Assembly (NCBI GenBank): GCA_963771175.1
Contig: CAVYSY010000032.1
Span: 96,001 to 160,000, forward strand
Origin: an uncultured delta proteobacterium
GTDB taxonomy: Bacteria; Myxococcota; Myxococcia; Myxococcales; Myxococcaceae
DNA length: 64,000 nt
Direction: 5' to 3'
Of this stretch, positions 14,673-37,472 are shown in pieces. The translations under genes were made by a program, and so were the position numbers. Each line of letters starts with the position of its first letter. Positions within the stretch are counted from its first letter, which is position 1. The notes under the pieces were generated by a model that saw only the letters and a program-made list of their open reading frames with translations, ran no database searches and was not told where the DNA came from.

Positions 14673-14706
14673 TCCTTTGACACCTTCCAGGGGGGTGCTG
14701 TAGCGC
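14673..14706 (+). promoter_or_regulatory. Island motif copy; also a possible promoter of the 14715 gene
   Basis: TCCTTTGACACCTTCCAGGG contains TTGACA (14677-14682), N18, then TAGCGC, and ATG follows 8 nt later. Confidence 0.45.
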
Positions 14707-14714
14707 TCCTTCCC

Positions 14715-15608: not shown

Positions 15609-15647
15609 GCGCCGCGTCGAACGCCTCCGTTGACGTCATGAGCCCAC

Positions 15648-16187: not shown

Positions 16188-16209
16188 GGAACCGTGCTCC
16201 AAGGTTCTT

Positions 16210-16995: not shown

Positions 16996-17134
16996 TCCCT
17001 CGGAGTCTAGAAGAACCAGTCCGGCCGCCTCAAGCGCCCACCACACGCCCCCACGGTGCCCAGCGCGTGCCTCCCGGCTCCAACCCGCTCTGAGCGCCGC
17101 GTCGAGCCGCGTGTCAGCACCCCATCGCACGTCG

Positions 17135-17551: not shown

Positions 17552-17553
17552 GG
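17454..17553. repeat. ~100-bp direct repeat, copy 1 (copy 2 at 19944-20042)
   Basis: gatcgagcgtgaa(a/g)tccggggcgaacatcctcgggcgcgaacagatgtggcgcatgtgctcgaaca... present at both sites. Confidence 0.85.
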
Positions 17554-17718
17554 CGTCGTGGACACGAAAATGAGAACGACCCGGCGCAGGGAGCTCGACT
17601 GGCACCGGGAGCACACACCCGGACACGGCCGAGGAGTCGTGCTGGACAGGACGATAGAGGTCATGCCGGAATGGACCACGAAGCAGGTCATGGTGCATTT
17701 CCGGAGGAGGCCCACACG

Positions 17719-18408: not shown

Positions 18409-18766
18409 CCCGTACGGAGGCGCGCCTGACCGGGCCTCCACGACAGGACGCCAACGAACGCGCCCTCGCACGCTCCACCGAACTGCTCGCGCGGATGGCC
18501 TGGCCCAGCGATTCGAGAGGAGCCCCGTCTGCCCGTGCGGCTGTATGGCTGGGAGGTGGGCATCCGCCCTCATGGCTCTAGAGGAGACCGCCCCCTGCCT
18601 CCGCCGTGCTCTCGGGCTGAATGCGCTCAAGGGAAATACCAGACGGCGTTGACTGGAGCATCGCGCGGGAGCTCGACGGTACCGGACTTGGAGCCGGGGC
18701 CTGTCCACAGGTGCCCGTACAGCAACGTGCCCTCCACCAGCAGCCCCGCCCCAACCGTGATGCCGC

Positions 18767-18946
18767 CGCAAGAACTTCCTCTTCGTCGGGCACGTGGCGG
18801 CGGGTGAATACCTCGCGGGCCTCTACGCCCTGGTGGCCACCTGCGAGGCGAACGGAATCAACCCCGAGACCTACTTGGCGGACGTGTTACTGCGCGTGCA
18901 GACGCACCCCAACTCGCGCCTCGACGAACTGCTGCCGCACGAGTGA
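18767..18946 (+). mobile_element. IS66-family transposase C-terminal remnant
   Basis: Translates RKNFLFVGH..AGLYALVATCEANGINPETYLADVLLRVQTHPNSRLDELLPHE*, the IS66 TnpC C-terminus. Confidence 0.85.
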
Positions 18947-18980
18947 GATTGTTCTTCACCGTTGAACAGAGCGGGAAAAC

Positions 18981-19580
18981 ATGCAAAAATCAAAACTCAA
19001 GATGACTCTATTGGTGCGCTTATTGCCATATCTGCTGAGCCTCGCATTGTCGGTAAGCGCCGGACGACCGGATGCTTGTGATTCGGGGGCTCTGCAATCA
19101 TATGGTCTGCTGAGTAGCTCACGTGTTCTGGTGAAATCCCTGATGGGTCAGGTGCCAGACTCCATCAGGGTCAAGATCTTCGCGGCGCTCGCGAAGGGTG
19201 ACGTCGAGGGAGCGGTCTCAGCCTACATGGCCCACAAGGGCTTGACCGACGCGCCGCGATGGCTCCAGGCGTTCCAGGCCGCCTTCAACGTGGCGAACCA
19301 GCAGATGGGACGCTGCCCCCAGGTGGCCAGGGACATCCACGCGGCACTCACGCGCTTCGGCGGCTCGCCGGAGTATGTGCGCGCCAGCAGTACAAAGGGT
19401 CCGTACCTGTCGTGGTACGGGAGACAAATCATGTCGGACAACAACACTCACTTCGCCGTTCGTTATAACGGGCGGCTCTATGATGCGTTCACAGGGGGCA
19501 GTGGAATGCTCGAGCAAGAATATATAGCCGCAATCGAGGCTCGCGCACCAGTGACCCTGGTCGTCACGGGGGCACCATGA
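18981..19580 (+). CDS. Secreted papain-fold toxin candidate (Tox-PL-2-like)
   Basis: Signal peptide; putative triad Cys (GRCPQVA), His (NTHFAVR), Asp (LYDAFTG); ATGA overlap with the next gene. Confidence 0.65.
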   Translation: MQKSKLKMTLLVRLLPYLLSLALSVSAGRPDACDSGALQSYGLLSSSRVLVKSLMGQVPDSIRVKIFAALAKGDVEGAVSAYMAHKGLTDAPRWLQAFQAAFNVANQQMGRCPQVARDIHAALTRFGGSPEYVRASSTKGPYLSWYGRQIMSDNNTHFAVRYNGRLYDAFTGGSGMLEQEYIAAIEARAPVTLVVTGAP

Positions 19581-19954
19581 CTGCCATCCAACCGCCAGAA
19601 GAATGGAGAGGTCGCACCGTCTATACGCTGGACATGCTCATGCTTCTTCGCGAGGAACTCCACCGTGTGGGCACTTTGTTGGTGCATACGGGAGCCACTG
19701 ACATCTATGTGCTGAGATCCTTCATTGATGGGATCACCTTCGCGCAATATTGCAATCGAATCGAAGATAGGGATTGCGAGGAGTTCTTCGCATGGTTGCG
19801 CGATGTGAAGAATGAGTTTCCCTGTGGAGGTGGCTGGGCGCGGAAATGCCTGGAGGAATGTCATGGCGATCACCGCGCGGCGATTGAGAGGTTCCTGGGC
19901 TTCGTAGTCGACTTCGTCGAGTTCAAGAAGAGAGAGAGACAAGATCGAGCGTGA
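19577..19954 (+). CDS. Cognate immunity protein candidate
   Basis: Small acidic helical protein translationally coupled to the toxin; FIDG...FFAWL..GW...GDH..AIERFL. Confidence 0.6.
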   Translation: MTAIQPPEEWRGRTVYTLDMLMLLREELHRVGTLLVHTGATDIYVLRSFIDGITFAQYCNRIEDRDCEEFFAWLRDVKNEFPCGGGWARKCLEECHGDHRAAIERFLGFVVDFVEFKKRERQDRA

Positions 19955-20125
19955 AGTCCGGGGCGAACATCCTCGGGCGCGAACAGATGTGGCGCATGTG
20001 CTCGAACAGACAGCCCGCATTGAGCTTCACAGGGCTCATGGCAGCTCGCGCACTACCTGCATCGAGAGCTGCCCGGGAGAATACAGGCGCTTCGTGTATT
20101 CGGTCACAGTCAACCCCGTGGGTCC
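19944..20125 (-). pseudogene. Remnant of a papain-fold toxin C-terminus plus 5' fragment of an immunity gene
   Basis: 20125-20036 encodes GPTGLTVTEYTKRLYSPGQLSMQVVRELP*; ATGA overlap into a truncated copy of the 17551 gene. Confidence 0.65.
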
Positions 20126-20149
20126 GTGTCAGGCGACAGGTCTACCGGC

Positions 20150-20767
20150 TCAACGCACGATGAAGTCGAATCGCTCCACGGCCGCCTTGAACTCCTCCAC
20201 CGTAGCCCCCCAGCGCTTCGCTTCCTCAGGCGCGTAAAACGTCCGCGCCACCGTGGAGGGCAGTTCCTTGAACCGCCCCTCGAGGATGACCGGAGTAAAG
20301 TCCCCTGGCCACGCCACGCTCAGCAGTTCCTGCCCGTGCTTGATCGGGTCAATAATGGTGAAGCAGGGCCACCTCGGCAGGCGGATCGTTCTCATGTCGC
20401 AGCCCTGAAAACGGCACAGATCCAACCGCGCCTCGGAGAAATCGCAGTTCTCCATCCCCCCGTGCTCCCACCATTCCCCGTGTCCGACCCGCTGGCCGAA
20501 GTCCATACCCGAAAAGCGGCCCTCGAAGCGACAACCCTTGAAGCTCATCGTCGTGAACCGCGTGTCCACGAGCTCGCGCTTTGCCTGGATGGTGCAGTTG
20601 ATCAACGTTCCCCACACGGGGATGACCTGCCGTCCTCCAACACGAATGACGACGGTGCAGTCCCGTAGCGTGAGATTGGGCCCAAGCCAATAGTTGGACT
20701 CCTTCTCTGTCAGCTCCAACTGCTCTCCCTCGATGGTTCGGTTCTCGTAGTGGATGTTCGGAGTCAC
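20150..20767 (-). CDS. Orphan immunity-like protein with pentapeptide/beta-helix-like repeats
   Basis: RBS GAGGGG before GTG; YWLGPNLTLRDCT, FKGCRFEGRFSGMDFG, ENCDFSEARLDLCRFQGCD, RWPCFTI; resembles myxobacterial Sit-type immunity proteins from memory. Confidence 0.6.
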   Translation of the reverse strand: MTPNIHYENRTIEGEQLELTEKESNYWLGPNLTLRDCTVVIRVGGRQVIPVWGTLINCTIQAKRELVDTRFTTMSFKGCRFEGRFSGMDFGQRVGHGEWWEHGGMENCDFSEARLDLCRFQGCDMRTIRLPRWPCFTIIDPIKHGQELLSVAWPGDFTPVILEGRFKELPSTVARTFYAPEEAKRWGATVEEFKAAVERFDFIVR

Positions 20768-20774
20768 GGGCCCC

Positions 20775-20960
20775 TCAGAAGAAAATCATTCGAAAAAACG
20801 TGCTCGCCATCCGCCGCCCATGAGTCTCGAACGGCGGTGCGGTTTCTCCAAGTCTGGTGCCTCCCCGCCGAGTGGAAACGATCCTGAAGGATATGACGAA
20901 AACGTCCCAACCATACAGGAGAGAAGGGGCAACCTCCGGGATGCTCGACCTGGAGGTGGA
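20775..20960 (-). pseudogene. Probable toxin C-terminal stub upstream of the 20767 immunity gene
   Basis: ...IPEVAPSLLYGWDVFV...HGRRMASTFFRMIFF* stops 7 nt before the immunity start; no N-terminus present. Confidence 0.4.
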
Positions 20961-21006
20961 GGGCTTCCAGTTTGGCCCGGGGGACGAGGTGCGCCCCCCC
21001 GCCATT

Positions 21007-21402
21007 CCTCGCGGGCACGGCTATGCTCGGACCCATGACACGCTCCTGGTTCCCGCCGCGCCACCTGTGCCGTGCCCTGTTCTTCCTCGCACTCGGGCCC
21101 CTGTGCCTCGAAGCGCGAGCGGAAACCGCCCCAACCCAGGCCTCCACAGAGGTCCCCTCCCCCTCCGTCGCCCGCTTCGTCCGCGCCTGCGACGCACTCG
21201 AAGCCGGAAACCTGGACGGCGCGGCGAGCGACATCCTCACGCTGCGCGAGACCCTTCCCGAGCGCCCCGAGCCACGCCTGCTGGAGTCACTCCTCTCCCT
21301 CAGGCGTACCCGGCCCGACCTCGGCTGGCGCGACGCCTTCCTCCGGATTGCTGCGCTGCCGCAGCCTTCCCTGGTTTGATCCGAATGAGGAGCCGACCCG
21401 GA
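21007..21402 (+). pseudogene. Internally deleted copy of the 12692 lipoprotein gene plus the Uma2 3' end
   Basis: 21007-21344 closely matches ~12656-13022 with the lipobox Cys lost (CLEAR); 21380-21401 matches 14646-14667 (tccgaatgagg.gc.ga.ccgg). Confidence 0.85.
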
Positions 21403-21413
21403 AGAGGATGGAG

Positions 21414-21890
21414 ATGACAAGCCTCGAAGACCGCTTGGAGATTCACGACCTGGTGTGCCGCTTCATGCAGGCGTTCGACGACAAGGACTGGGTCCTGCTA
21501 CGCGCCTGCCTCACCGACGTGGTGTTCTGCGATTACTCGTCCCTCCGGGGAACGCCCCCGGGAGAGGAGGAGGCCGCGCAGTACGTGGCCAGGCGCCAGG
21601 CGGCTCTCAGCCCGCTCCACATGCAGCACGACTTTTCCAACTTGCGGGTCGAGGTGGACGGCGCACGGGCCCGAGGACGGTGCAACTTCGTCATCCACCG
21701 CTTCGCCCCGGGCTTCAACGGCTCGCCGGAGCAGTTCTTTCACAGCTACGGCCACTATCGGTTCGACTTCACGCGCGAGGCCTCGGGCTGGCGCATCCGC
21801 GGCATCACCCAGGTGGTCCTCCAGAATCATGGCAACCCGGCGCTCCATTCTGGAACCCGAGGAGCACCGACGCCCGCGAAGCAGCCGTAG
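21414..21890 (+). CDS. SnoaL-like / NTF2-family protein
   Basis: LEDRLEIHDLVCRFMQAFDDKDW..LTDVV, QHDFSNLRVEVDG, GHYRFDF..GWRI. Confidence 0.85.
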   Translation: MTSLEDRLEIHDLVCRFMQAFDDKDWVLLRACLTDVVFCDYSSLRGTPPGEEEAAQYVARRQAALSPLHMQHDFSNLRVEVDGARARGRCNFVIHRFAPGFNGSPEQFFHSYGHYRFDFTREASGWRIRGITQVVLQNHGNPALHSGTRGAPTPAKQP

Positions 21891-21980
21891 CGAGGCGAGG
21901 ACCACGGAGGCATGCTACCGAGACCCCACTCTGCTCACATCCCCATCCGGGGCTCGACCTACACCCCTCCGACCCGAGAC

Positions 21981-22844
21981 ATGTCCATTCCGCGTTCAGC
22001 TCCTTTGACACCTCCCAGGGCATCCCGGCGCCTCCTCACGGTCTCCGTGGCCGTGCTCCTCTGCCTGTCCTGCGCCCCCGTCCCCCTTGCGCCTCGCGGC
22101 TCACCCGCGAGAACCAGCTTCACTGGAACGCGCAGCGGCACCCCGGCCCAGTTCAACCAGTCGTGTGGAGCGGCCTGTGGTGCCCCCGTCGCCCCGGGCA
22201 CCGGGGAGATTCTCGCGCCAACGGTCACTCGGGCCGGACAGGTACTCGAGAAGGTCGTCCAAGCCACCGAGGCTCTCAACGGTCTCCTCATCGTCTCGAA
22301 GTTCCTCGACGAGGCCCAGAAGGCGAAGGCCGAGAAAATCCTGGCCGAGTGCGCCAGCGTCGCCAACTTCAAGGTCAACGAGGAACTCTTCGGCGAAGGG
22401 AAGTCCCTACCCGAGTCCGAGTGCCTGAAAAAGCCCACCGTCGCGAATCCAACCGCTGACACATGGGGGCAGCACCTCGGCAACCTCAAACACAAAGCAG
22501 CCTTCCTCTGCGTCCAGGAGCGTCTGACCAAGGAGTTCCCTCACAACTTCTCCATCGAGCCTCGCTATCGCCAGGACAAGATGACAAAAGACGTCATGCT
22601 CACCGACAGAAAGAGTGGCTCGCTCAGGCCGGACGTGGTTCTCCACTTCACTCGAAACGCAACACGGATCCAGTGTATCTACGATTTCAAGTTTCCGTGC
22701 CTGCGAAAAGATCGAATCAACCCACTCAAGGACTCTGACATCAGGGACCAATTGAAGGCGTACTTCGATCTCGAACGCAGTTGCATTCCCGCCATTGTCA
22801 CTCCCGCCCACGGTGTCTACCGCCCTGCCCCTGACTCCCTCTGA
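21981..22844 (+). CDS. Lipoprotein with C-terminal PD-(D/E)XK nuclease (VRR-Nuc/TseV-like toxin), copy 1
   Basis: Signal RRLLTVSVAVLLCLSC; RPDVV...YDFKFPC...QLKAY motifs; coupled to the DUF3396 gene; alternative TTG start at 22005. Confidence 0.75.
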   Translation: MSIPRSAPLTPPRASRRLLTVSVAVLLCLSCAPVPLAPRGSPARTSFTGTRSGTPAQFNQSCGAACGAPVAPGTGEILAPTVTRAGQVLEKVVQATEALNGLLIVSKFLDEAQKAKAEKILAECASVANFKVNEELFGEGKSLPESECLKKPTVANPTADTWGQHLGNLKHKAAFLCVQERLTKEFPHNFSIEPRYRQDKMTKDVMLTDRKSGSLRPDVVLHFTRNATRIQCIYDFKFPCLRKDRINPLKDSDIRDQLKAYFDLERSCIPAIVTPAHGVYRPAPDSL

Positions 22845-23854
22845 TGCTCCAGCACTATCCTCGAATTCGACCGCATGGCGTCTACCCTCCAGACAGCCAG
22901 GAAGGAGGCGAGCGTCTCCTCGCGCGGGAGGTGATTCATTTCGTCTTCTACATGCCACACGATCACCCGGACCTCGCCGCGGGAGTGGCCCACGCCTTCG
23001 ACAGCTATATGAAAGCTGTCGGTGAAGGGCCCAACACGATCAACTCCTGTGCCTTCAACTACTACGATCATGGCCCCCTCTCCGAAGAGCGCTGGAGCCG
23101 CGTCCGCCAATTGCTGCTGCCAGACCGTCCGTTCCGTTACGTGGAAGATTGCACGAACGAGTACCGGGTCAGGGAGATGGAAAAGAGCGGCAGAGAGACG
23201 TGGATTCACCTGGATAACGACCTACAGGAACTCTCGGGCTTTCAACTCACCTACTCAGCCCGTATCCCGACCCGCGACCGGCAGCCATCCGACAACGACG
23301 TGAGCTATCTCGAGGGCATGCTGCCGACCGAGTGCCTTGAGGAACGCGGGCCCGCTGCGGTGAGGGAGCTGATGCTCGACCTGGCTTCGGGCCTTCACTT
23401 CGCCAGTGGCCATGCGGGGCTGAGCTTCGATTCCGTCGTCGGGGACGTGTTCTTCACACGCCGAATCCGCACCGAGCTCCTTCGCCATCCGGGGATCAGT
23501 CTCAACCACGGCTCTGCTCCGGCCTGGATGGGCACGCGCGTGGACGGAGTGCACTGGCTCAACTTCCTGGGCCCTCCCGTCCTTCAGGAGCTGGGCGGCG
23601 TGTCCGCACTGCGTTCCCGCCTGCACTCTCCTGAAACGACTGTCCAGGCAATCGACGGAACGCGGGCCGTCGTGACACTGGGAAATTGGCCTGAAGCGGG
23701 CGATCTCACCCGAGGCAACGCGATCCCCGCCTACCGCGAGTTCGGCCGACTGCTGGAGCCCTGGCTCGACAAGCCCTTCGAGGACCCCAGGTTTCGCGTC
23801 GAGGGCTTCACCCAGGAAGAAGCCATGGGTTGGGCCCGGCGTTTCCTCGACTGA
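22844..23854 (+). CDS. DUF3396 / TsiV-like immunity protein, copy 1
   Basis: LPTE.LEE.GP..VRELML.LA..L.FASGHAGL, RHPGI, VDGVHWLNFLG, VVTLG.WPEAGD, A..WARRF. Confidence 0.82.
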   Translation: MLQHYPRIRPHGVYPPDSQEGGERLLAREVIHFVFYMPHDHPDLAAGVAHAFDSYMKAVGEGPNTINSCAFNYYDHGPLSEERWSRVRQLLLPDRPFRYVEDCTNEYRVREMEKSGRETWIHLDNDLQELSGFQLTYSARIPTRDRQPSDNDVSYLEGMLPTECLEERGPAAVRELMLDLASGLHFASGHAGLSFDSVVGDVFFTRRIRTELLRHPGISLNHGSAPAWMGTRVDGVHWLNFLGPPVLQELGGVSALRSRLHSPETTVQAIDGTRAVVTLGNWPEAGDLTRGNAIPAYREFGRLLEPWLDKPFEDPRFRVEGFTQEEAMGWARRFLD

Positions 23855-23901
23855 ACTACGAGGAGGGAGACACGTTCGAGTCCTTTGACACCTTCCCGGC
23901 C

Positions 23902-24131
23902 GCGCACGGGCCCGAGGACGGTGCAACTTCGTCATCCACCGCTTCGCCCCGGGCTTCAACGGCTCGCCGGAGCAGTTCTTTCACAGCTACGGCCACTATC
24001 AGTTCGACTTCACGCGCGAGTCCTCGGGCTGGCGCATCCGCGGCATCACCCAGGTGGTCCTCCAGAATCATGGCAACCCAGCGCTCCATTCTGGAACCCG
24101 CGGAGCACCGACGCCCGCGAAGCAGCCGTAG
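23902..24131 (+). pseudogene. 3' half of the SnoaL-like gene (duplicated fragment)
   Basis: Near-identical to 21661-21890 with no start region. Confidence 0.85.
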
Positions 24132-24221
24132 CGAGGCGAGGACCACGGAGGCATGCTACCGAGACCCCACTCTGCTCACATCCCCATCCGGGGCTCGACC
24201 TACACCCCTCCGACCCGAGAC

Positions 24222-25082
24222 ATGTCCATTCCGCGTTCAGCTCCTTTGACACCTCCCAGGGCATCCCGGCGCCTCCTCACGGTCTCCGTGGCCGTGCTCC
24301 TCTGCCTGTCCTGCGCCCCCGTCCCCCTTGCGCCTCGCGGCTCACCCGCGAGAACCAGCTTCACTGGAACGCGCAGCGGCACCCCGGCCCAGTTCAACCA
24401 GTCGTGTGGAGCGGCCTGTGGTGCCCCCGTCGCCCCGGGCACCGGGGAGATTCTCGCGCCAACGGTCACTCGGGCCGGACAGGTACTCGAGAAGGTCGCC
24501 CAAGCCACCGAGGCGCTCAACGGTCTCCTCACCGTCTCGAAGTTCCTCGACGAGGCCCAGCGGGCGAAGGCCGAGAAGATCCTGACCGAGTGCGCCAGCG
24601 AAGCCAACTTCAAGGTCAACGAGGAACTTTTCGGGAAGGGGAAGTCGTTGCCCGAATCCGAATGCGACAAGGAGCCCAACGCCAAGAACAAAACCGCTGA
24701 CACCTGGAGGCAGCACCTCGGCAATCTCAAGCACGCAGCCGCCTTCATCTGCGTGCAGGAGCGCCTGGCAGCGGAGTTTCCAAACAATTTCACTATCGAG
24801 CCTCGCTACCGAAGAGAGGAGTTCACGAATGAGCTCCTCCTGACAGATAGATGGCGCGGCTCTCAACGGCCAGACGTGGTCCTCCACTTCACCCGCAACG
24901 CCACTCGAATTCAGTGCATCTACGACTTCAAATTCCCCTGTGATACCGCTGACCGCAGCAACCCCCTCGCCGACCCGCGCACCGAGGCGCAGCTCCTCAA
25001 ATACAAAGATCTCGGCAACGAGGATTGCCTACCAGCGGCCATCACCCCCAGCCTCGGAATCAGCAGGCTCTCCTCCCAATGA
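24222..25082 (+). CDS. Lipoprotein PD-(D/E)XK nuclease toxin, copy 2 (divergent C-terminus)
   Basis: Same N-terminus as copy 1; RPDVV...YDFKFPC...QLLKY. Confidence 0.75.
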   Translation: MSIPRSAPLTPPRASRRLLTVSVAVLLCLSCAPVPLAPRGSPARTSFTGTRSGTPAQFNQSCGAACGAPVAPGTGEILAPTVTRAGQVLEKVAQATEALNGLLTVSKFLDEAQRAKAEKILTECASEANFKVNEELFGKGKSLPESECDKEPNAKNKTADTWRQHLGNLKHAAAFICVQERLAAEFPNNFTIEPRYRREEFTNELLLTDRWRGSQRPDVVLHFTRNATRIQCIYDFKFPCDTADRSNPLADPRTEAQLLKYKDLGNEDCLPAAITPSLGISRLSSQ

Positions 25083-26086
25083 CACAACACTACCCCCGGA
25101 TTCGTCCCTACGGTGTCTATCCTCCCGAGAAGGAGGCCGGCGAGCGTGTCCTCGCGAGAGAGGTGATCCATTTCGTCTTCTACATGCCGCATGATCACCC
25201 GGATCTCGCCGCCGGAGTATCCCACGCATTCGACCGCTACATGAAAGCGGTGGGCGAAGGGCCAGACACCATCAATGCCTGCGCTTTCGGTCACTACACT
25301 CACGGCCCCCTTTCCGACGAGCGGTGGAAACGCATCCGCGAGCTGCTGCTGCCCGACCGTCCCTTCCGCTACGCCGAGGATTGTACCGACCCGTATCGCC
25401 TTAGGGAGCTGGAGAAGGGCGGCAACGAGACATGGATTCACCTGAGCAACGGGCACGACAGACTCTCGGGCTTCAAGCTCACCTACTCAGCCCGTATTCC
25501 GTCCCGAGACCGGGAGCCGTCCGACTACGATGTGAGCTACCTTGAGGGCATGCTGCCGACCGAGTACCTTGAGGAGCATGGCCCCGCTGCGGTGAGGGAG
25601 CTGATGCTCGACCTGGCTTCGGGTCTTCATTTCGCCAGTGGCCATGTGGGGTTGAGCTTCGATTCTCTCATCGGGGACGTGTTCTTTACGCCCCGAATCC
25701 GCACTGAGCTCCTGCGCCATCCGGGGATCAGTCTCAATCATGGATCCATTCCGGACTGGATGGGCACGCGCGTGGACGGAGTGCACTGGCTCAACTTCCT
25801 GGGCCCTCCCGTCCTTCAGGAACTGGGCGGAGTGTCCGCACTTCGTTCCCGCCTGCACTCACCTGAAGCGACGGTCCAGGCAATCGACGGGACTCGAGCC
25901 GTCGTAACGCTGGGGGATTGGCCCGAAGCGGGCGATCTCACCCAAGGCAACGCGCTCCCCGCCTATCGCGAGTTCGGCCGCGGACTGGAGCCCTGGCTCG
26001 ACAAGCCCTTCGAGAACCCCAGGTTCCGTGTCGAAGGATTCACTCAGGAAGAAGCCATGGGTTGGGCCCGGCGTTTCCTCGACTGA
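25079..26086 (+). CDS. DUF3396 / TsiV-like immunity protein, copy 2
   Basis: ATGA overlap; MTQHYPRIRPYG...; homologous to copy 1 throughout. Confidence 0.82.
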   Translation: MTQHYPRIRPYGVYPPEKEAGERVLAREVIHFVFYMPHDHPDLAAGVSHAFDRYMKAVGEGPDTINACAFGHYTHGPLSDERWKRIRELLLPDRPFRYAEDCTDPYRLRELEKGGNETWIHLSNGHDRLSGFKLTYSARIPSRDREPSDYDVSYLEGMLPTEYLEEHGPAAVRELMLDLASGLHFASGHVGLSFDSLIGDVFFTPRIRTELLRHPGISLNHGSIPDWMGTRVDGVHWLNFLGPPVLQELGGVSALRSRLHSPEATVQAIDGTRAVVTLGDWPEAGDLTQGNALPAYREFGRGLEPWLDKPFENPRFRVEGFTQEEAMGWARRFLD

Positions 26087-26214
26087 ACTGAAAGGTGAGA
26101 AACTCGTTCGAGCCCTTTGGCACCTTCCCGGGAGCACCAAATCCAATCAACCCCACTGACGGCAGCAAACCTCGTGGGAGAAAAACTTCGGACAGCGGAA
26201 GTAATCGAGCAATC

Positions 26215-27374
26215 TCAGAATGGAATGCTATCATCCGAAGGGCAATTGGAGCATCCATCTTCGGCCGTGTTTCTATACCTATCCTTCTTATTCATCAGCG
26301 TTCCACATTTGTCACACCAAACAAGATCATAGTTCCGATTCCCGCAATCCGCACAATACTGATTGTTATTAAATTCGGCACCGCAGCGCTCACACGGGTA
26401 CACCAACCTGCTTCCGCAGGCCCCACAAAATGGCTTGTGTGTATTTCTTATGAGACCAGGACCATCATACCAGCCGCCCTTGCCCCACCTCGTGGTTGGA
26501 CAGCGCACATTCAAGCAAAGGGCATCTCCTGGCTCAACTCGCTCAACTACAGCAACCTCCAGACGCTCCAGCTCTACTCTAAAATCATTTGCGCTCTGAA
26601 AACGCTTGGCTGGATCAATGTGACAAGCCTTCCTCAGCAGCTCTCGGAAAAATGGAGAGAGTTGCGACAAATCATTCTCCACAAGCTCAGGCCTGCTAAT
26701 TCTGCGCCCAACGAGCAACTCAAAAAGAACAAGCCCCAACAAAAGAGGTCTGCCCGTCGGTCAACTTCTCTCCCTGAAATTTGCTCGGGAGCCGCATAGA
26801 CCCAGGTACCAGGAGTCCTTTTGTCACCTGTTATGCGAGTGAGCCCTGGCGCAGGGCTCAAGCTAACACCTATTGAGAAATCAATCAGGTAGCAGTGCCC
26901 AGTCTTTGAAACCAGCACATTCTCAGGCTTGACGTCCCTGTGGACAATGTTGTTTTGATGAACGCATGCAAGGGCGCCTAATATCTGCTTAACATACGAT
27001 GTGGCCGTCTTGGGATTTTGTTTCCCATTGCCGATGACCGCATCAAGCCCATGGCCATCGATAAACTGCATAATGATGTACGGTATTGACACATTCACAA
27101 GAGTTGCATTGCCACAAGAGAGCACAAAGGGTATCGAGGGATGCTGAGATTTAGCTAGAAGTTTGGCTTCGCGCTCAAACCGTTTCCGACCGACGGCGTC
27201 GGATTTTCGGCTGGGGTGATCAAAAAACTTAATTGCCAATTCGCGCGCAAGCTTCGGTTGCGTTGCTAGATAAACATTGCCCGAGGCTCCGCGTCCAAGG
27301 CGCTTCCCAAGTATAAGATTGTGCTGTTTGAAGTATTCGATGTACTCACGGGGTGCCTCTGCGTCATTAGCCAT
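26215..27374 (-). CDS. Hanks-type Ser/Thr kinase with C-terminal Zn-ribbon cluster and DDSIPF tail (1-nt frameshift near 26743)
   Basis: LGRGASGNVY, LAIK, HRDVKPEN, DFS, YAAPE; restoring one base gives DLFSLGLVLFELL; IDPAKRF; multiple CxxC; visibly AT-richer DNA. Confidence 0.85.
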
Positions 27375-28021
27375 TCGATTCTTCCTCTGCGGTCCTTATG
27401 CGACATGCAGATCAGCCTGATTCCGCAGTATCGCAGTGGGCACAGGGAGGGGAAGAGGTCTCAGTTCCTTCGAACGGCCACCAGATGAACGGAAGGACGG
27501 CCCCGGAGGCCCCCCATGCGGTTCGGCAACAGAGATTGAAGACGAGAGCCCTCTGGAGCACCGAGGCGCAGTGTTCCCAGGGCGCACGCCTTTCCTGGCC
27601 ACTTGCCCATGAAGACTATGGCAGGTGCTGACAATCCCTGCTTTTCAGTTCAACACCACGCATCTTGAGGTGTCCCGCACGGGAGCAGCTTGCAGGAGCC
27701 CTGGGGAACTACAAATGCACCGGGATAGGCCGAACTCAACCCTTGCGCCTTCAATCTCCCAGGTCATGCGTACATGTGCAGCAGCAACGCAGCGGGACGG
27801 CCTCGTCGCTCAGCAAACTCCAGAAGCAGAGCACCCACATTCCCGCCCAGGAAGTGGACAAGCCAGCGGGGCAGAAGTCACGTCCCCTGGCAGAAGATGG
27901 AGCCACTACATCCGGCACCACCTCATAGAACAGAGTTCACCGGTCGCATGCACCGCTCCTTCCCCCTTGCCCACCCTAACTACACCCCGCCAAGGTCCAT
28001 ACTACTGGGTGCGCACCAACG

Positions 28022-28064
28022 AAAAAACCCGGGGTCGCTCTGGGAGGGACGCGACCCCGGGGTT
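28022..28064 (-). terminator. Rho-independent terminator after ftsA
   Basis: Stem cccggggtcgc / gcgaccccggg followed by a T6 run on the minus strand, about 24 nt after the ftsA stop. Confidence 0.8.
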
Positions 28065-28087
28065 CACTGCGGTACTGCGACAGCTCT

Positions 28088-29320
28088 CTAGAAGATCTCC
28101 TCGAGCCACTCGCGCATGCGGCCCTTGACCTTCTTGTAGACGTTCTCCTCGCGGATCCGGAACATCCGCCGGTCCAGGTGCTTCGCCCCGTACACCACCA
28201 GGCCCACGCCCGTCGCGTACATGGGGCTCTTCACCACGTCCACCAGCCCGCCAATCCCCCTCGGCATGCCCCGGCGCACCGGCAGCCCGATGACTTCCTC
28301 GGCCAGCTCCGGCATCCCCGCCAGCAGCGTCGAGCCTCCCGTAATCACCACGCCCGAGGCCAGCAGGTCCTCGTAGCCGCACTTCTGGATCTCCCGGTGC
28401 ACCAGCTGGAAGATCTCCTCCACCCGCGGCTCCAGAATCTCACACAGAATCTGCCGCCCCAGCACCCGCGGCTGCCGCCCGCCCACGCTCGGCACCTCGA
28501 GCGTCTCGTCCTTGTTCACCATCGAGGCCAGCGCGCAGCCGAACTTCTGCTTGATGCGCTCGGCCTCGTGCGCCGGCGTCCGCAGGCCAATCGCGATGTC
28601 GCTCGTCAGGTTGTTGCCCCCGAGCGCGATCACCGCCGTGTGCACGATGGAGCCGCCCGAGAAGATGGCGATGTCCGTGGTGCCCCCGCCGATGTCCACC
28701 AGGCACACCCCCAGCTCCTTCTCGTCCTCTCCCAGCACCGCCTCGGCCGACGCCAGCGGCTGCAGCACGATGTCCGACACGTTCAGGCCCGTGCGGTTCG
28801 CGCACTTCACGATGTTCTGCGCGCTCGACACCGCGCCGGTGACGATGTGCACCTTGGCCTCCAGGCGCACTCCCGCCATCCCCAGCGGCTCCTTGATGCC
28901 GCCCTGGTCGTCGATGATGAACTCCTGCGGCAGGACGTGGATGACCTCCCGGTCCAGCGGAATCGCCACGGCCTTGGCGGCGTCGATGACGCGGGCGATG
29001 TCCGCCTCGCGCACCTCCTTGTCCTTCACCGCCACGATCCCCTGCGAGTTGAAGCCCTTGATGTGGCCACCGGCGATGCCGGTGTACACGTGGGAGATCT
29101 CCGCCCCCGCCATCAGCTCGGCCTCCTCCACCGCGCGACGGATGGAGGCCACGGTCGCCTCGATGTTGACGACCACGCCCTTGCGCAGGCCCTTCGACGG
29201 GTGCGTCCCGATGCCGATGATGTCGATCCCATTGTCGGTGAGCTCCCCGACGATGGCGCAGATCTTCGTCGTGCCGATGTCGAGGCCGACGATGATCTCC
29301 CCGGACTTCTGCTTCGCCAT
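28088..29320 (-). CDS. ftsA: Cell division protein FtsA
   Basis: GLDIGTTKI, GLRKGVVVNIE, VDIGGGTTD, GVVITGG, PMYATGVGL. Confidence 0.98.
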   Translation of the reverse strand: MAKQKSGEIIVGLDIGTTKICAIVGELTDNGIDIIGIGTHPSKGLRKGVVVNIEATVASIRRAVEEAELMAGAEISHVYTGIAGGHIKGFNSQGIVAVKDKEVREADIARVIDAAKAVAIPLDREVIHVLPQEFIIDDQGGIKEPLGMAGVRLEAKVHIVTGAVSSAQNIVKCANRTGLNVSDIVLQPLASAEAVLGEDEKELGVCLVDIGGGTTDIAIFSGGSIVHTAVIALGGNNLTSDIAIGLRTPAHEAERIKQKFGCALASMVNKDETLEVPSVGGRQPRVLGRQILCEILEPRVEEIFQLVHREIQKCGYEDLLASGVVITGGSTLLAGMPELAEEVIGLPVRRGMPRGIGGLVDVVKSPMYATGVGLVVYGAKHLDRRMFRIREENVYKKVKGRMREWLEEIF

Positions 29321-29364
29321 GGACTCCCTCCCAGGCCCCCCACTCTCGTGAAAGGGGCGCGTCC

Positions 29365-30220
29365 TTACTGCGCCGAGGCCCCGCTCCTCTCGGACCGGGG
29401 CTCGAAAGTCTTCACCGCCACCCAGCCGGGACGCGCCCGGTTGTCCAGGTGGATTGTCTGTGCGGACAGCCCGCGCGCGACGCAGCTCGTCGCGCACCCG
29501 CGCCAGCCGCTGCAGCTTCGCGTCCGTCTCCCCCTCCCCCAGCAACACCTCCAGCCCCGTCCGCCGACACCAGCACCATCCCCGCGGGCGTCACCCGCAC
29601 CTCGCTCAGCCGCTCGCGCTTGCCGGGCTGCCGGGCCGCGTAGGCCTCCGCCACCGCCAGCGCCTCACGGACGCGCTCGCGCACTCCCGCCTCGTCCGCC
29701 AGGTAGCCCTCCCGGTCCAGCCCCGTGAGGAGCGGCAGGTCCACCTTGTCCCCGGGCTGCAGCCGCTTGAAGGGCTCGCCCTGCTCGTCCAGCAGGTAGA
29801 GGTCCCCGAGCGTCGCCAGCGCCGCCGGCACGTGCTCGGTCACCTCCACCGACACGCTGGAGGGGAAGTGGCGTCGCACCTCCACGGTGCGCACCCAGGG
29901 GTGGGCGGACATGGCGCGCTCCAGCGGCTCCACGTCCAGCGACCACAGGTTCTGCCCCACCGTCAGCCCGGACAGCTTGAGCAGCTCGCCCGGGGCGGCC
30001 CGCTGCAGCCCGCTGAAGGTCGTCTCCTTCAGCAGGAAGGTGGGCGAGGAGAGCGCCCAGCGCCGCAGCTCGACTCCGCCCCACACCAGGGCCAGGTCAG
30101 ACCCGTCAGTAAGATGGCCTTCAGCAGGCCGGGACCGTGCGTGCGCACGGCTCCCTTGACGGCCTCCTTCCTCTCGGAGGCGTCCTGGCGACGACGGTTC
30201 TTGGACTTACCGAATGCCAT
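29365..30220 (-). CDS. ftsQ: Cell division protein FtsQ (frameshifted)
   Basis: Basic N-terminus, TM, POTRA (GQNLWSLD..HPWVRTVEVRRHFPSSVSVEVTEH.P); lies between ddl and ftsA. Confidence 0.88.
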
Positions 30221-30346: not shown

Positions 30347-31303
30347 TCAGGCCTTGAGACTGGCCCCTTGCAGCAGGCGCTCGCACAGGGCGGGGAAGTC
30401 GATGCCCCGGCCCGCGGCGATCTTCGGCAGCAGGCTGGCCTCGGTCATTCCCGGGCAGCGTGTTGATCTCCAACAGGAAGACCTCACCGGACGGCGTCAG
30501 GATGACGTCCGAGCGGGTGCCTCCACTGCATCCAAGCGCGCGATGGGCACCAAGGCAGACCTGGTTCACGCGCTCGTACTGATCCGGCGGGAGGGGGGCC
30601 GGGAAGAGGTACTTCGTGGTTCCCCCGGATTGGTACTTGGCCTGGTAGTCGTAGAACTCCCGCGCGGCCACCACCTCGATGACGCCGAGGGCCTCGTCGT
30701 CGAGGACCGCCGCCCTGCACCTCGCGGCCCTTGATGTACTGCTCGACCAGGATGGTGCCGGCCAGCTTGGAGGCGTCCTCGACGGCGGCGAGGTACTCCT
30801 CGCGCGTCTTGCACGATGTGGACGCCGACGCTGCTGCCCTCGCGGGAGGGCTTGACGACGGCCGGGAGGCCGAAGGGCAGCGAGTCCACGGCGGCCCGGG
30901 CCTCCTCGCGGTGCGGAAGGCGCGGTAGGGCGGCGTGGGGATGCCGTGGGCGATGAAGACCTGCTTGGCGAAGACCTTGTCCATGCCCAGGGACGAGGCC
31001 AGCACGCCGCTGCCGGTATAGGGGATGAACATGCGACTCGAGCAGCCCCTGGACGCAGCCGTCCTCGCCGTAGCGGCCGTGGAGGGCGATGAAGGCCACC
31101 TCCACCTTCTCGGCCACGAGGCGCGCGGGCAGGTCCTTGCCCACGTCGATCTCCACCACGTCGTAGCCGAGCCCCCGCAGGGCCTTGGCCACGGCGGCGC
31201 CGGTGCGCAGCGACACCTCGCGCTCGGAGGACAGGCCTCCCAGCAACACACCCACCCGCTTCCGCTTCAGCTCTTCCTTGGAGATGGTGCTCACGGTGCT
31301 CAT
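30347..31303 (-). CDS. ddl: D-alanine--D-alanine ligase (frameshifted)
   Basis: [55 protein letters not shown]. Confidence 0.95.
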
Positions 31304-32236
31304 GGCTGGAACACCCCCACGCGCTTGACTTCGGGTTGGAGCTCGACGCCCGCTCCTCGCGCACCCGAGTCTGCATCAGGGTGAGGAGCGAAAGCACGTC
31401 GTGGGCGGTGGCACCGCCCAGGTTGACGATCCAGTTGGCGTGCAGGGTGGACACCTGCGCGCGACCGATGACGTGGCCCTTGAGCCCCACGCTCTCGATG
31501 AGCCGCCCGGCGAAGTCGCCCGGCGGATTGGTGAAGACGCTGCCGAAGTTGGGCTGGCTGAGCGGCTGGCGTGCGCTTGCGGTAGGCGAGGTCCTCGTCC
31601 ATCGCCTTCTTGGACGCCTCGAGGTCCCCCTTGCGCAGCAGGAAGCGCACCCGCGTCACCACGCCGCCCGCGGGCAGCTCCGAGTGCCGGTAGCGGTGCG
31701 GAATCTCCGCCTTGCGGAAGCCACCCCACCCCGTCCGCGGTCGCCACTTCCACCGCCTCCACCACGCGGAAGCACTCGCCGTTCTTGGTGCCCGCGTTCA
31801 TGGTCACCGCGCCGCCCAGGGTGCCGGGGATGCCCGCGAGGAACTCGGCACCCACCAGGCCGTGGGCGCGCATCTGGTTGCAGCAGCCGGACGATGGCCG
31901 CGCCCGCGCCGAGGGTGAGCCTCCCCTCCTCCGCGCCCACGTCGGCCAGCTCGGGGAACAGGTCCCCCGGCAGCTTCACGGTGACGCCCGGAATCCCCGC
32001 CGTCGCCCACGAGGGTGTTGGCGCCGCCGCCGAGCACGGTGAGGGGCACGCCCTCCTCGCGCAGGAAGCGCAGCAGGGCCACCAGGGCCTCCGGCGAGCG
32101 CGGGCGGACGAGCGCCTCGGCCGGGCCGCCCACGCGCACGCTCGTGAGGGGCGCGAGCGGCGCGTTCGCCGTCACGTCACAGCCGGACAGACGCCCCACC
32201 CGCTCGGGCAGGGACGATGAGAGGACGCGCCACCAT
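31300..32236 (-). CDS. murB: UDP-N-acetylmuramate dehydrogenase (frameshifted)
   Basis: [46 protein letters not shown]. Confidence 0.93.
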
Positions 32237-32240
32237 GCCG

Positions 32241-33674
32241 TTACGCGCCCTTCGCCGTTCCGTGCTGCTTGAGCAGCTCGAGCAGCTCCGGCCCCACCTG
32301 GGTGATGTCGCCGGCGCCCAGGGTCAGGACGAGGTCGCCCTCGCGCAGCCGGGGCAGCAGCGTCTTCGCGACGTCCGCGCGCTTCTCCACGTAGGTGACG
32401 TCGCGGTGGCCGTGGGCGCGGATGGCCTCGGCCAGCGCCTCGCCGGTGGCGCCGGGGATGGGCTCCTCGCCGGCCGCGTAGACGCTGGTGACGTAGACGC
32501 ACGTCCGCGTCGTTGAAGGAGGTCGCGAACTCCTTCAGCAGGTCGTGGGTGCGCGTGTAGCGGTGGGGCTGGAAGGCCACCACGAGCCGCTTGCCGAAGG
32601 CGCGCCGGGCGCCCGCGAGCGTGGCCTGCACCTCGGTGGGGTGGTGCCCGTAGTCGTCCACCACGGTGACGCCGGCCGCCTCGCCGCGCACGGTGAAGCG
32701 CCGCTGCACGCCGCCGAACTCGGCGAGCGCGCCGCGCACCACGTCGAGGGGAATGTCCATCTCCTCGGCCACGGCGATGACGGCCAGGGCGTTGAGGGCG
32801 TTGTGCGCGCCCACCATGCGCACGCGGAACTCGCCGAGCGGCTCGTCGCGCCGGAAGGCCTCGAAGCGGGTGGTGAAGCCCTCCAGCCGCACGCCCTCCA
32901 GCCGGTAGTCCGCCATGTGCGAGCTGCCGTAGGTGACGAAGCGCTTCTCCAGGCGCGGCAGCAGCGACTGCACGTTGGGGTTGTCCAGGCACAGCACGTT
33001 GAGGCCGTAGAAGGGCACGCGGTTGCAGAAGGCCATGAAGGCGTCCTTCAGCTTGTCCAGCGTCGCCGTAGTGGTCCATGTGCTCGGGGTCGATGTTGGT
33101 GACCACGGCGATGGACGGGTGCAGGTGCAGGAAGCTGCCGTCGCTCTCGTCGGCCTCCACCACCATCAGCTCGCTCTGGCCCAGCCTGGCGTTGGAGTCG
33201 AGCACGTTCACCTTGCCGCCCACCACGGCCGTGCGGGTCCAGCCCCGCGGCGCTCAGCACGGTGGCCACCATGGAGGTGGTGGTCGTCTTGCCGTGGCTG
33301 CCCGCGACGGCGACGGCGTACTTGAGCCGCATCAGCTCGGCGAGCATCTCCGCGCGGGGGATGACGGGAATCTTCCGCTGGCGCGCGGTGACGACCTCGG
33401 GGTTGTCCTTGCGCACCGCCGAGGAGATGACGACCACGTCCGCCTTCACGAGGTTCTCCGCGCGGTGGCCCTCGAAGACGGTGGCGCCCAGGCGCTCGAG
33501 GCGGCGGGTCGTCTCACTGGCCTTGAGGTCCGAGCCGGACACCCGGTAGCCCAGGTTGAGCAGCACCTCGGCGATGCCGCTCATGCCGATGCCGCCGATG
33601 CCCACGAAGTGCACGTGCGCGGCATGGCGCGTCTTGAAGAGGCTCGCGGGCCTGGCGGGGCGGTTCGTCGTCAC
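32241..33674 (-). CDS. murC: UDP-N-acetylmuramate--L-alanine ligase (frameshifted)
   Basis: [50 protein letters not shown]. Confidence 0.96.
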
Positions 33675-33687
33675 GGGTGTCGTCTCC

Positions 33688-34908
33688 TCAGACCTGCTTC
33701 TCGTTGCCGCCAGCCTGCTGCTCGCCGCCAGCCTTCGGCTCGGTGCCGGGCTTCTTCTCCTTGCCCGGCTTCTTCGGGTTGGGGTCTTCACCCCGGGCCT
33801 CGGCCCGACCGGAGGGGCCGTACGTCTGGATCATCAGCTCCACGAGCACGTCCGCCAGCTCCTTGGCCGCCTCGGGACGCCCCAGCAGGCCCGCCTTCTT
33901 CTCCATCTGGCGGCGCTTCTCCGGGTCATCCTTGAGGCGGCGGATCTCCTGGGCGAGCTGCTGTCCCGTCAGCTCCGACTCGCGGAACATGAGGGCCGCG
34001 CCCGCCTTCACCAGCGCCTGGGCATTCACCTCCTGGTGGTTGTCCGTGGCGAAGGGGAAGGGAATGAGGATGCTGGCCTTCTTGGCCACCGTCAGCTCGG
34101 ACAGCGTGGTGGCGCCCGCCCGGCAGATGACGAGCTCCGCCCTGGCGTACGCGTCGGACATGTCCTCGATGTACTCCACCACCTGGGCCTGGGCGGTGAA
34201 GCCCTTGGCCGCGTAGCCCTGGCGCACCGTCTCGAGGTCCTTCTTGCCCGTCTGGTGCACGATGTGGAGCTGATCCTTGATGTCCTGCAGGTGGTCCAGC
34301 GCGTCGATCATCCGCTGGTTGATGCCGCGCGCCCCGAGGCTGCCGCCGAAGACGAGCAGGGAGAACTTCTCGTGCGCCACGCGCGAGCGCAGGAAGTTCT
34401 CCATCAGCGTGCGGCGGATGGGGTTGCCGACGAGCTGCACCTTGCGCGCGGGGAAGAAGGGGCGCGCCTCCTCGAAGGCGGTGAAGACGACGCGCACGAA
34501 CCGGCCGAGCACCTTGTTGGTGAGCCCCGGCAGCGCGTTCTGCTCCTGCACCGCGGTGGGGATGCCCATCAGCGCCGCGGCGAGCACCACCGGCCCGCTG
34601 GCGTAGCCGCCCACGCCCACCACCACGTCCGGCTTCTGGCGCTGGAGGATGCGGATGGACTCGATGAAGGCCAGGGGCAGCGCGAGCAGGCCCTTGATGA
34701 GGCCCACGAAGCCCTTGCCCTTGAGGCCCTGCGCCCGGATGGTCTCCAGCTTGTAGCCGGACTGGGGCACCACCCGCGCCTCGAGGCCGCGCTCGGTGCC
34801 CACGAACAGCACCTGGTTGGCGTGGTGCCGCGTCACCACCTCTTCGGCCAGGGCGATGCCCGGGTAGAGATGACCGCCCGTACCGCCTCCCGCGATGAGC
34901 ACCTTCAC
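33688..34908 (-). CDS. murG: MurG glycosyltransferase
   Basis: [43 protein letters not shown]. Confidence 0.97.
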
Positions 34909-36074
34909 GCCGCCACCTCCCTCATGTCACCGCCGGAGCGAAAAGTCCGGTTGCCAGCGGGTTCCGCGCTGGCACTCAGCGAAAGCAATACACCGGCCGC
35001 ACCCATCAGCACCACCAGGGAGGTGCCCCCGTAGGACACGAAGGGCAGTGTCAGTCCTTTAGTCGGCAACAGGCCCATGGCCACGCACATGTTCACCGTC
35101 GCCTGGAAGGCAATGATGGAGGTGAGCCCCAGGCCCAGGTACGTGCCAAATGTCTCCGGGGCGGCGAGGCTCGCGCGGATGCCGCGCCAGATGACGATGG
35201 CGTAGAGCGACACCAGCAACACCACCCCCATGAGGCCCAATTCCTCGCCGATGATGGCGAAGATGAAGTCCGTGTGGGCCTCGGGCAGGAAGAAGAGCTT
35301 CTGCCGCCCGTCTCCCAGGCCCAGGCCGGTGAGGCCGCCCGAGCCGATGGACATGAGGGACTCGGCCACCTGGTAGCCGATGTCGTGCCGGTGGGCCCAC
35401 GGGTCCAGGAAGGCCAGCACTCGCTTCATGCGGTAGGGACTGGAGGCGATGGCCGCGTACGCCAGCGGCAGCGCCAGCAGCACCGAGCCCACCAGGTAGC
35501 TCACCTTGGTGCCCGCGGCGAACAGCAGCGCGAAGAGCAGGAACACCAGCAGCACCGAGCTGCCGAAGTCCGGCTGCAGCATGCACAGGCCCACCAGCAG
35601 GCCGCACAGCAGCAGGTGCGGCAGGAAGCCCACGGAGAAGGTGGCCACCTTCTCGCGCTTCTTGGCCAGCGAGTAGGACAGGTAGACGACCCAGGCGACC
35701 TTGGCCACCTCGGCCGGCTGCAGGCCGAAGCCCGGCAGGCGGATCCACCGCCGCGCGCCGCCCGCCGTGGTGCCGATGCCCGGAATCAGCACCAGCACCA
35801 GCAGCACCAGCGTCACCAGCAGCAGCGGATAGGCGAGCCGCGCCAGCCGGCGCCAGCCCACCTTCATCCCCACCGCCATCGCCACCACGCCCAGGCCGGC
35901 CGCCACGAGCTGCCGGTTGAGGAAGTAGAGGCTGTCACCCAGCTTGTCCTGGGCCATGACGGCGCTCGCCGAGTACACCATCACCAGTCCGAGCGAGACG
36001 AGTGACAGCACCGCGCACAGCAGCAGCGCGTCGAAGCGCACCGGGGCGGCGGAGGGAGCGGCGAGGACCTTCAT
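34905..36074 (-). CDS. ftsW: SEDS peptidoglycan polymerase FtsW
   Basis: GLVMVYSAS, GARRWI, QPAEVAK, QPDFG, LPEAHTDFIFA, GLLPTKGLTLPFVSYGG. Confidence 0.97.
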   Translation of the reverse strand: MKVLAAPSAAPVRFDALLLCAVLSLVSLGLVMVYSASAVMAQDKLGDSLYFLNRQLVAAGLGVVAMAVGMKVGWRRLARLAYPLLLVTLVLLVLVLIPGIGTTAGGARRWIRLPGFGLQPAEVAKVAWVVYLSYSLAKKREKVATFSVGFLPHLLLCGLLVGLCMLQPDFGSSVLLVFLLFALLFAAGTKVSYLVGSVLLALPLAYAAIASSPYRMKRVLAFLDPWAHRHDIGYQVAESLMSIGSGGLTGLGLGDGRQKLFFLPEAHTDFIFAIIGEELGLMGVVLLVSLYAIVIWRGIRASLAAPETFGTYLGLGLTSIIAFQATVNMCVAMGLLPTKGLTLPFVSYGGTSLVVLMGAAGVLLSLSASAEPAGNRTFRSGGDMREVAA

Positions 36075-37456: not shown

Positions 37457-37472
37457 GCGCGCCTCCCTCTGC

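Follow-up and report, generated by a model that had tools for sequence, protein, structure and literature searches.

Bacterial SSB, a protein that binds single-stranded DNA, carries at its C-terminus a conserved hexapeptide, DDDIPF, the SSB C-terminal tip (SSB-Ct), which engages many partner proteins (excerpts of PMC5872125). The acidic tail is critical for RecO, PriA and other proteins, and phage recombination proteins also depend on SSB tails (excerpts of PMC5928155). A phage protein switches on the kinase Stk2, which kills through phosphorylation of proteins of the host (excerpts of PMC6532042), and AbiJ-NTDs, the N-terminal domains of predicted abortive-infection proteins, are found fused to effector domains that include protein kinases (Anantharaman et al., 2013; excerpts of PMC3710099). 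Here we describe a gene that places a tail of the SSB-Ct type on a Ser/Thr kinase, encoded within a 64-kb stretch of DNA (hereafter the window; contig CAVYSY010000032.1, positions 96,001 to 160,000) from the assembly GCA_963771175.1 of an uncultured delta proteobacterium. Coordinates are positions within the window, and labels of the form P00xx denote relatives of the window kinase.

The gene lies on the minus strand at 27374-26215, with its ATG at 27374-27372 and its stop codon at 26217-26215. It is covered by two open reading frames (ORFs), 27374-26634 (246 amino acids) and 26742-26215 (175 amino acids), and the intact product would have about 385 residues. The combination of a kinase domain, a domain of twelve cysteines (Cys12) and an SSB-Ct-like tail is a small, undescribed family: no kinase with an SSB-like tail is described in the full-text literature searched, a body of text from which subscription-only papers are mostly absent.

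An SSB-Ct-Like Tail Conserved Across the Family

The initial annotation of this locus had read a protein that terminates in the SSB-like sequence PSDDSIPF and had asked whether that end is kept in homologs. The stop codon does follow the tail directly, and the tail is conserved. A word-index search with the C-terminal 175 amino acids recovered four close relatives of 382-386 amino acids, 70-87% identical and all with intact genes, which end in ADDGIPF, SDDDIPF, SDDSIPF and TDDDIPF, that is, in DD-x-IPF in all four cases. An exhaustive phmmer search with the same piece against 1.84 billion cluster representatives (50% identity clusters) returned 66 distant relatives at E<=0.001, 46 of them at E<=1e-10. 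These are typically 30-45% identical to the query and about 390-420 amino acids long, with the kinase and the Cys domain in the same order. The end -PF is present in 52 of the 66 and -IPF in 41, and 21 carry exactly DDDIPF, the tip of Escherichia coli SSB; three more have another end in -F, and 11 have no such end.

When the 52 distant sequences ending in -PF are joined with the four close relatives (n=56), Asp occupies position -6 in 37, position -5 in 41 and position -4 in 46, Ile occupies position -3 in 45, and the final Pro and Phe are present in 56/56. The stretch between the last CxxC and the end of the protein varies from 4 to 44 residues (median 22), is unalignable and abounds in Pro, Ser, Thr, Gly and Ala, and the hydrophobic-Pro-Phe motif always stands at the extreme C-terminus, as in SSB. 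In an AlphaFold2 (AF2) model of the intact relative from Archangium violaceum (P0002), the last six residues average a predicted local distance difference test (pLDDT) score of 56, which fits a free tail. The build, a conserved C-terminal peptide on a tether that is disordered and variable, is that of a short linear docking motif, and because the tail is conserved across relatives whose linkers are not, it is more than a chance resemblance.

In addition, the linkers of P0016, P0040, P0061 and P0037 hold a second IPF or PF copy upstream of the terminal one, for example ...EQIPFSDDDIPF and ...SEIPFLSDSDIPF. The doubled motif suggests, from the sequences, a duplication of the docking peptide. A complex prediction of the window's Zn domain and tail with the Swiss-Prot RecO protein RECO_MYXXD scored 0.15 against a mark of 0.32; it gives no verdict and is not used either way.

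The Kinase and Cys12 Domains

The first ORF matches the Pfam family Pkinase (PF00069) at E=5.2e-33, with 115 bits against a cut-off of 31.7, over residues 23-223 (profile positions 4-193 of 263), and the intact P0002 protein scores 130.2 bits. The window translation keeps the G-loop, the Lys of VAIK, the Glu of helix alphaC, HRD, the catalytic Asn, DFS, APE and the Arg of subdomain XI. Across the family no column for the G-loop, K49, Glu69, HRD, N152, DFS, APE, D209 or R258 shows more than one exception (44-60 of 44-60 non-gap sequences); the position of DFG is DFS throughout, and the subdomain XI Arg is found in 60/60 non-gap sequences. The closest solved structures by sequence are the kinase domains of mycobacterial PknB and PknA (E=7e-34 over residues 21-224), and for P0002 no NCBIfam model scored above its cut-off. 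The AF2 model of P0002 has a mean pLDDT of 89.7 and a predicted template modeling score (pTM) of 0.71. No transmembrane (TM) segment is apparent: the maximum Kyte-Doolittle mean over 19 residues is 1.48 and falls in the beta-strand region of the kinase (no dedicated TM predictor was run). To judge by these sequences, the family consists of soluble, active-looking Hanks-type Ser/Thr kinases.

The kinase domain is followed by the compact Cys12 domain of about 95 residues, in which the window protein has the pairs CLNVRC, CGAC, CERC, CADC, CDKC and CSNC. In a 15-sequence alignment each of the 12 Cys is invariant or conserved to at least 90%, and together they are enough for three predicted Zn(Cys)4 sites. 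The Pfam family DZR (PF12773) matches below threshold (23.1 bits against a cut-off of 27.3; 22.4 bits for P0002) and covers some 32 of the approximately 95 residues. An AF2 model of the window's 111-residue Zn domain plus tail reached a mean pLDDT of 89.5, and Foldseek searches with the Zn-domain model found nothing at E<=0.001 in the PDB (best E 0.32) or in BFVD (best E 0.32); the best score in the ESM Atlas was 0.83, and only generic zinc-ribbon clusters were matched there. The net charge of the domain is near neutral across the relatives (median +1, range -12 to +14). Binding of single-stranded DNA by this domain was considered and set aside, as the charge is about neutral and nothing supports it.

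The GC content of the kinase gene is 0.50, against approximately 0.70 in the host and 0.66-0.76 in the window outside an island at 15-28 kb; values of 0.44-0.54 over 150-nt intervals are confined to 26.2-27.4 kb, which is the kinase gene itself. The gene, which lies 713 nt downstream of ftsA, is convergent with a TsiV-like gene whose end is at 26086. The initial annotation had described a stand-alone, AT-rich gene for a soluble, compositionally foreign Hanks kinase that lacks a TM segment and carries a Zn-ribbon cluster of six Cys pairs, and its description agrees with the gene neighborhood, base composition, hydropathy, Pfam matches and translation given above. The gene is likely a horizontally acquired accessory element.

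A Frame Break in Kinase Subdomain IX

In the window copy the frame of the Hanks kinase is interrupted. The minus strand reads GAC CTC TTT T/G TTG GGG CTT, with the slash at the break, and the four intact relatives read DL[YF]SLGLVLFELL at this point. Since the relatives have Ser there, the Ser codon of the window copy lacks one base, between 26741 and 26740; the initial annotation had located a single frameshift in subdomain IX at about 26743 and thus came within 3 nt. The two halves of the gene align with residues 1-210 and 213-386 of P0002 at 88.1% and 86.8% identity, respectively, with no other lesion; residues 211-212 of P0002 fall between the two local alignments.

Essential genes of the division and cell wall (dcw) cluster in the same window are also broken in frame. 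Viterbi segmentation on codon-phase GC places 47 same-strand frame switches in 30.5-45.1 kb (30553-45112, minus strand), and the gene content of this dcw stretch would account for about a dozen gene junctions. The gene mraY (37473-38656, minus strand) is split over three frames, as verified by hand: the piece 38267-38656 carries the MraY signature, and the match to the glycosyltransferase-4 profile (positions 72-159 of 160) is in a different frame, at 37476-38066. Pfam matches to other dcw products, including a transpeptidase domain, MraW and Mur ligases, are likewise cut at ORF ends. The genes ftsA, murG, ftsW, murD and ftsZ read cleanly, and insertion/deletion (indel) errors are dense only in places. 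As the essential genes cannot all be dead, the window sequence must carry many indel errors, and with such an error load one indel in a gene of 1.16 kb is to be expected. We therefore regard the frameshift in the kinase gene as probably a sequencing or assembly artefact, as the initial annotation had supposed. Programmed frameshifting was also considered, as a -1 slip on CUC-UUU-U would restore the length of the product with a Ser to Leu change; it was rejected in view of the single-frame genes of the four close relatives and the many other breaks in the window.

Distribution and Architectures of the Family

The named relatives come from Archangium violaceum, Archangium gephyra and Polyangium aurulentum, and the remainder are metagenomic. 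Members are rare and patchily distributed, and of the 20 clusters examined most are singletons; further word-index searches added five and then zero new relatives, and a profile search of genome contigs gave 99 pattern matches and two loci, both of which encode unrelated double-zinc-ribbon proteins, with no locus of the family. One cluster of three members, P0048, has an AbiJ_NTD3 domain (6e-51, residues 3-143) before the kinase, the Zn domain and a GDDIPF tail. This domain is absent from the window protein and from P0002, and among the proteins examined by Pfam an N-terminal AbiJ-NTD occurs only in P0048.

Other N-terminal extensions were also observed. P0019 (residues 1-320) and P0022 (residues 1-150) share an unassigned N-terminal domain with the motif D-x-D-N/H-W-N-G-G-T, and the extensions of P0022 and P0045 match no Pfam family at E<=1. 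The subclade with N-terminal extensions is the same one that has minimal tails, in which C-x2-C is followed by EIPF, GVPF, NRLPF, NIRF or IAF.

Genomic Setting

The genes ftsZ and ftsA are usually adjacent. Here approximately 17 kb (10626-28087) separate them, with the kinase gene inside this interval, and the GC content is reduced to 0.51-0.68 over 15.6-28 kb. The interval looks like an insertion hotspot within the division cluster (Table 1). It contains two tandem cassettes, each encoding a PDC-M20A-like protein and a TsiV-type immunity protein, whose leaders of 300 nt are 99% identical (21661-21960 and 23902-24201) and whose immunity genes share a 300-nt stretch at 79% identity (22899-23198 and 25131-25430). 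The PDC-M20A-like proteins have a signal-peptide-like N-terminus with a Cys. The cassettes may resemble the lipoprotein toxin/immunity pairs of myxobacterial outer-membrane exchange. The kinase gene sits in a variable island of the conflict type. Several long ORFs of the reduced-GC part (16210-17532, 17548-18771) have no Pfam or PADLOC match, and no sigma-70-like promoter site was found in 26.0-28.2 kb, a scan that is uninformative for this organism.

Table 1. Positions of the parts of the kinase gene and of neighboring genes in the window.
Feature	Positions	Strand	Basis or remark
Shine-Dalgarno-like GAGGA	27383..27387	-	8 nt 5' of ATG; strand reads CAGAGGAAGAATCGA-ATG
Kinase gene up to the frame break (211 codons, 1-211): N-lobe, catalytic loop HRDVKPEN, DFS, activation segment, APE, to ...RRADLF	26742..27374	-	Pfam Pkinase; identity to P0002 residues 1-210
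Frame break: remaining bases T, G of a Ser codon short of one base	26740..26741	-	Comparison with intact relatives
End of kinase C-lobe, subdomains IX-XI (LGLVLFELL...KRFQSANDF...), and short connector to Zn domain	26524..26739	-	Translation; alignment to relatives
Cys12 domain, six Cys pairs: C-x4-C...C-x2-C / C-x2-C...C-x2-C / C-x2-C...C-x2-C	26242..26523	-	Translation; Cys conservation
Tail PSDDSIPF, SSB-Ct-like tip at extreme C-terminus	26218..26241	-	Translation; stop codon 26215-26217
Two tandem cassettes, PDC-M20A-like protein and TsiV-type immunity protein	21912-22844 / 22844-23854 and 24153-25082 / 25025-26086	+	Convergent with kinase gene; TsiV Pfam PF11876 2e-42 and 1.6e-40; PADLOC PDC-M20A/B down to 1e-113
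ftsQ	29412-30206	-	
ftsA	28088-29548	-	
ftsZ	9345-10625	-	

Several further features of the window were recorded. A 16-27-nt element with a consensus of about GTTCGAGTCCTTTGACACCTTCCCGG recurs in direct orientation at gene-cassette junctions of the island (10836, 14665, 21993, 23873, 24234 and 26105); one copy lies 150-200 nt upstream of ftsZ, and the 27-nt copy at 26105-26131 adjoins the kinase gene at its 3' end, just in front of the low-GC sequence. The element contains a TTGACA-like hexamer. A 300-nt direct repeat, 93% identical (12719-13018 and 21041-21340), connects the part of the ftsZ-ftsA insert that is high in GC to the beginning of the region of a SnoaL-like gene. A gene for a putative restriction endonuclease of the Uma2 family (13887-14654, plus strand; Pfam 1.2e-21) also matches the PADLOC candidate PDC-S03. 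Additionally, a protein with two FHA domains, which read phospho-Thr (Pfam 3.9e-36), is encoded at 3873-4889 on the plus strand, 22 kb from the kinase gene and with no evident link to it.

Proposed Mechanism and Alternatives

The SSB tip is a common handle for more than a dozen enzymes of replication, repair and recombination, and SSB tails are used by proteins of phages as well. That a kinase family retains this handle at its own end suggests a direct way in which bacteria could aim phosphorylation at their machinery for replication and repair. The tail may dock the kinase onto proteins that have SSB-tail pockets, a step suggested by the conserved tip that we rate as slightly short of an even call. 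In such a mechanism the tail would insert into the pockets of genome-maintenance proteins, these being either clients in the host (RecO or PriA, for instance) or SSB-tail-using proteins of phage replication and recombination. The kinase would thereby be brought to these clients, and they or their neighbors at single-stranded DNA would be phosphorylated. The outcome could be a block of replication or recombination that serves inter-genome conflict, in the form of phage defense or abortive infection. Because the gene is accessory, likely horizontally acquired and located in an island of conflict genes, its likeliest use is in inter-genome conflict. Support for such a role is indirect and comes from the two adjoining toxin/immunity cassettes and from the AbiJ_NTD3 domain of the P0048 cluster. 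An anti-phage sensor role, which the initial annotation had put forward, is plausible; that the complete chain from docking through phosphorylation to a block of replication or recombination operates in such conflict is a more doubtful proposition.

A number of observations weigh against this mechanism. Eleven of the 66 distant relatives have no such tail, and while most of these are fragments or weak matches, P0030 (414 amino acids) looks complete. One subclade is nearly devoid of the acidic part, its proteins ending in C-x2-C followed by GVPF, EIPF, NRLPF, IAF or NIRF, so that the universal feature is hydrophobic-Pro-Phe-COOH, which could suit another receptor. In the window's own clade the tail begins directly after the last Cys, which may limit its reach. 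The Zn domain, whose charge is near neutral, lacks a structural relative, and nothing ties it to DNA. Moreover, the matches to the defense system PD-T4-6 cover the kinase core only, with none over the Zn domain or the tail, and the adjoining cassettes look like secreted toxin/immunity pairs and are not proven phage defense. The C-terminal 175-residue piece had no tblastn match in 72,556 plasmid or 50,697 phage records. Finally, the frameshift may be genuine, and this copy would then be dead.

The tail could instead be a regulatory element of the kinase itself, docking onto either the kinase or the Zn domain, in cis or in trans, with a convergent likeness to SSB-Ct. The C-terminal hydrophobic motif of AGC kinases, which docks on the PIF pocket, is one precedent for such a tail. 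Another is the SSB tip, which docks on its own OB (oligonucleotide/oligosaccharide-binding) fold (excerpts of PMC5928155). That [IVL]-P-F-COOH is the only universal part of the tail would agree with self-regulation, as would the subclade in which the motif directly follows the last Cys, with neither acidic residues nor a linker, an arrangement suited to an intramolecular contact; the second IPF or PF copies in the linkers of P0016, P0040 and P0061 can be read in the same way. However, AF2 does not place the tail confidently (pLDDT 56 over the last six residues of a model that averages 89.7), linkers of up to approximately 40 disordered residues suggest a tether that reaches other molecules, and the frequency of exact DDDIPF (21/66) and of Asp at -4 (46/56) is closer to SSB-Ct than a generic hydrophobic motif needs, which leaves self-regulation unlikely. 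Identity of the hexapeptide of many members to the SSB tip would also be consistent with a competitive decoy, a tail that works independently of the kinase, draws clients off SSB and so blocks replication or recombination. The strict family-wide conservation of the catalytic residues implies that phosphotransfer matters, however, and against SSB, which is tetrameric and abundant, one tail on a protein of presumably low copy number competes poorly; we consider a decoy very improbable.

Docking on SSB clients might be real in a protein that is not a defense factor and is instead an endogenous regulator of replication or repair, for example in DNA-damage signaling in myxobacteria-like organisms rich in Ser/Thr kinases. 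The chromosomes on which the named members reside (Archangium and Polyangium) measure 12-13 Mb, the plasmid and phage records searched contained no copy, no partner gene or toxin-like effector is attached, and the PADLOC matches cover only a generic kinase core, all of which would suit a regulator. Yet the distribution is rare and patchy, in mostly singleton clusters, the GC content drops 20 points under that of the host within the gene alone, the gene lies in an inserted island beside toxin/immunity cassettes, and one cluster is fused to AbiJ_NTD3; an endogenous role is accordingly improbable. There is a similarly small chance that the window copy is a true pseudogene, in which the one-base deletion is real and the gene a decaying, currently functionless remnant of transfer. 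Inactivation of foreign genes is common, 35 out-of-frame residues close the first ORF after the break in subdomain IX, and the missing base, which falls between T and G behind a run of T, does not amount to a simple homopolymer length change. Against decay, the lesion is the only one, the halves retain 87-88% identity to an intact ortholog, and essential genes of the same window are broken as well, with mraY in three frames and 47 switches in 14.6 kb.

Were the docking kinase to act in conflict, it could represent a previously undescribed class of conflict kinases that carry a copy of SSB-Ct, the hub peptide central to replication in the host. The peptide may be a bait through which phage replication or recombination proteins switch the kinase on, or an address label that leads to phosphorylation of the whole set of SSB clients and to a shutdown of replication and recombination during infection; either form of this class is a speculation that we think rather less probable than not. 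If true, it would add hub-peptide mimicry to the ways in which immune proteins find their targets and would be the first short linear hub motif borrowed by a bacterial immune kinase. The tail is a clean experimental lever, with six residues to delete or one Phe to change, and the small family with its compact Cys12 domain is tractable.

Comparison With Known Systems

The P0048 cluster resembles the AbiJ-NTD architectures, in which AbiJ-NTD1 and AbiJ-NTD3 have kinases among their fused effectors; no AbiJ-NTD is present in the window gene or in most of its relatives, and the excerpts of PMC3710099 mention neither a Zn-ribbon nor an SSB-like tail. Similarly to staphylococcal Stk2 and E. coli PD-T4-6, the window gene encodes, alone, a soluble eukaryote-like Ser/Thr kinase. 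The best PADLOC model for PD-T4-6, PDLC04042, matches residues 20-274 of P0002 with 194.6 bits, and the longer models reach only to residue ~225; membership in PD-T4-6 is taken as unproven, since the matches are limited to the kinase core. The Hanks core is also shared with PknB and PknA. PknB is a membrane receptor kinase with PASTA domains, whereas the window protein has no TM segment and carries another C-terminal module.

A tail of the SSB type on an enzyme other than SSB has a counterpart in phage T7, where the gp4 helicase-primase and the gp2.5 SSB share an acidic C-terminal tail that ends in Phe, and gp4 competes for the same docking site. The T7 protein belongs to a phage replisome and is not a kinase, and its sequence differs. 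In comparison with SSB itself, the tail of the window family is borne by a Ser/Thr kinase and a Cys12 domain in place of an OB-fold tetramer, no Pfam SSB or OB family is among the matches of the window ORFs or of P0002, and one subclade has no acidic residues. With SSB-Ct and its disordered linker the family nevertheless shares a hexapeptide that is the same or nearly so (DDSIPF in the window, DDDIPF in 21/66 relatives), its place at the extreme C-terminus and a low-complexity linker.

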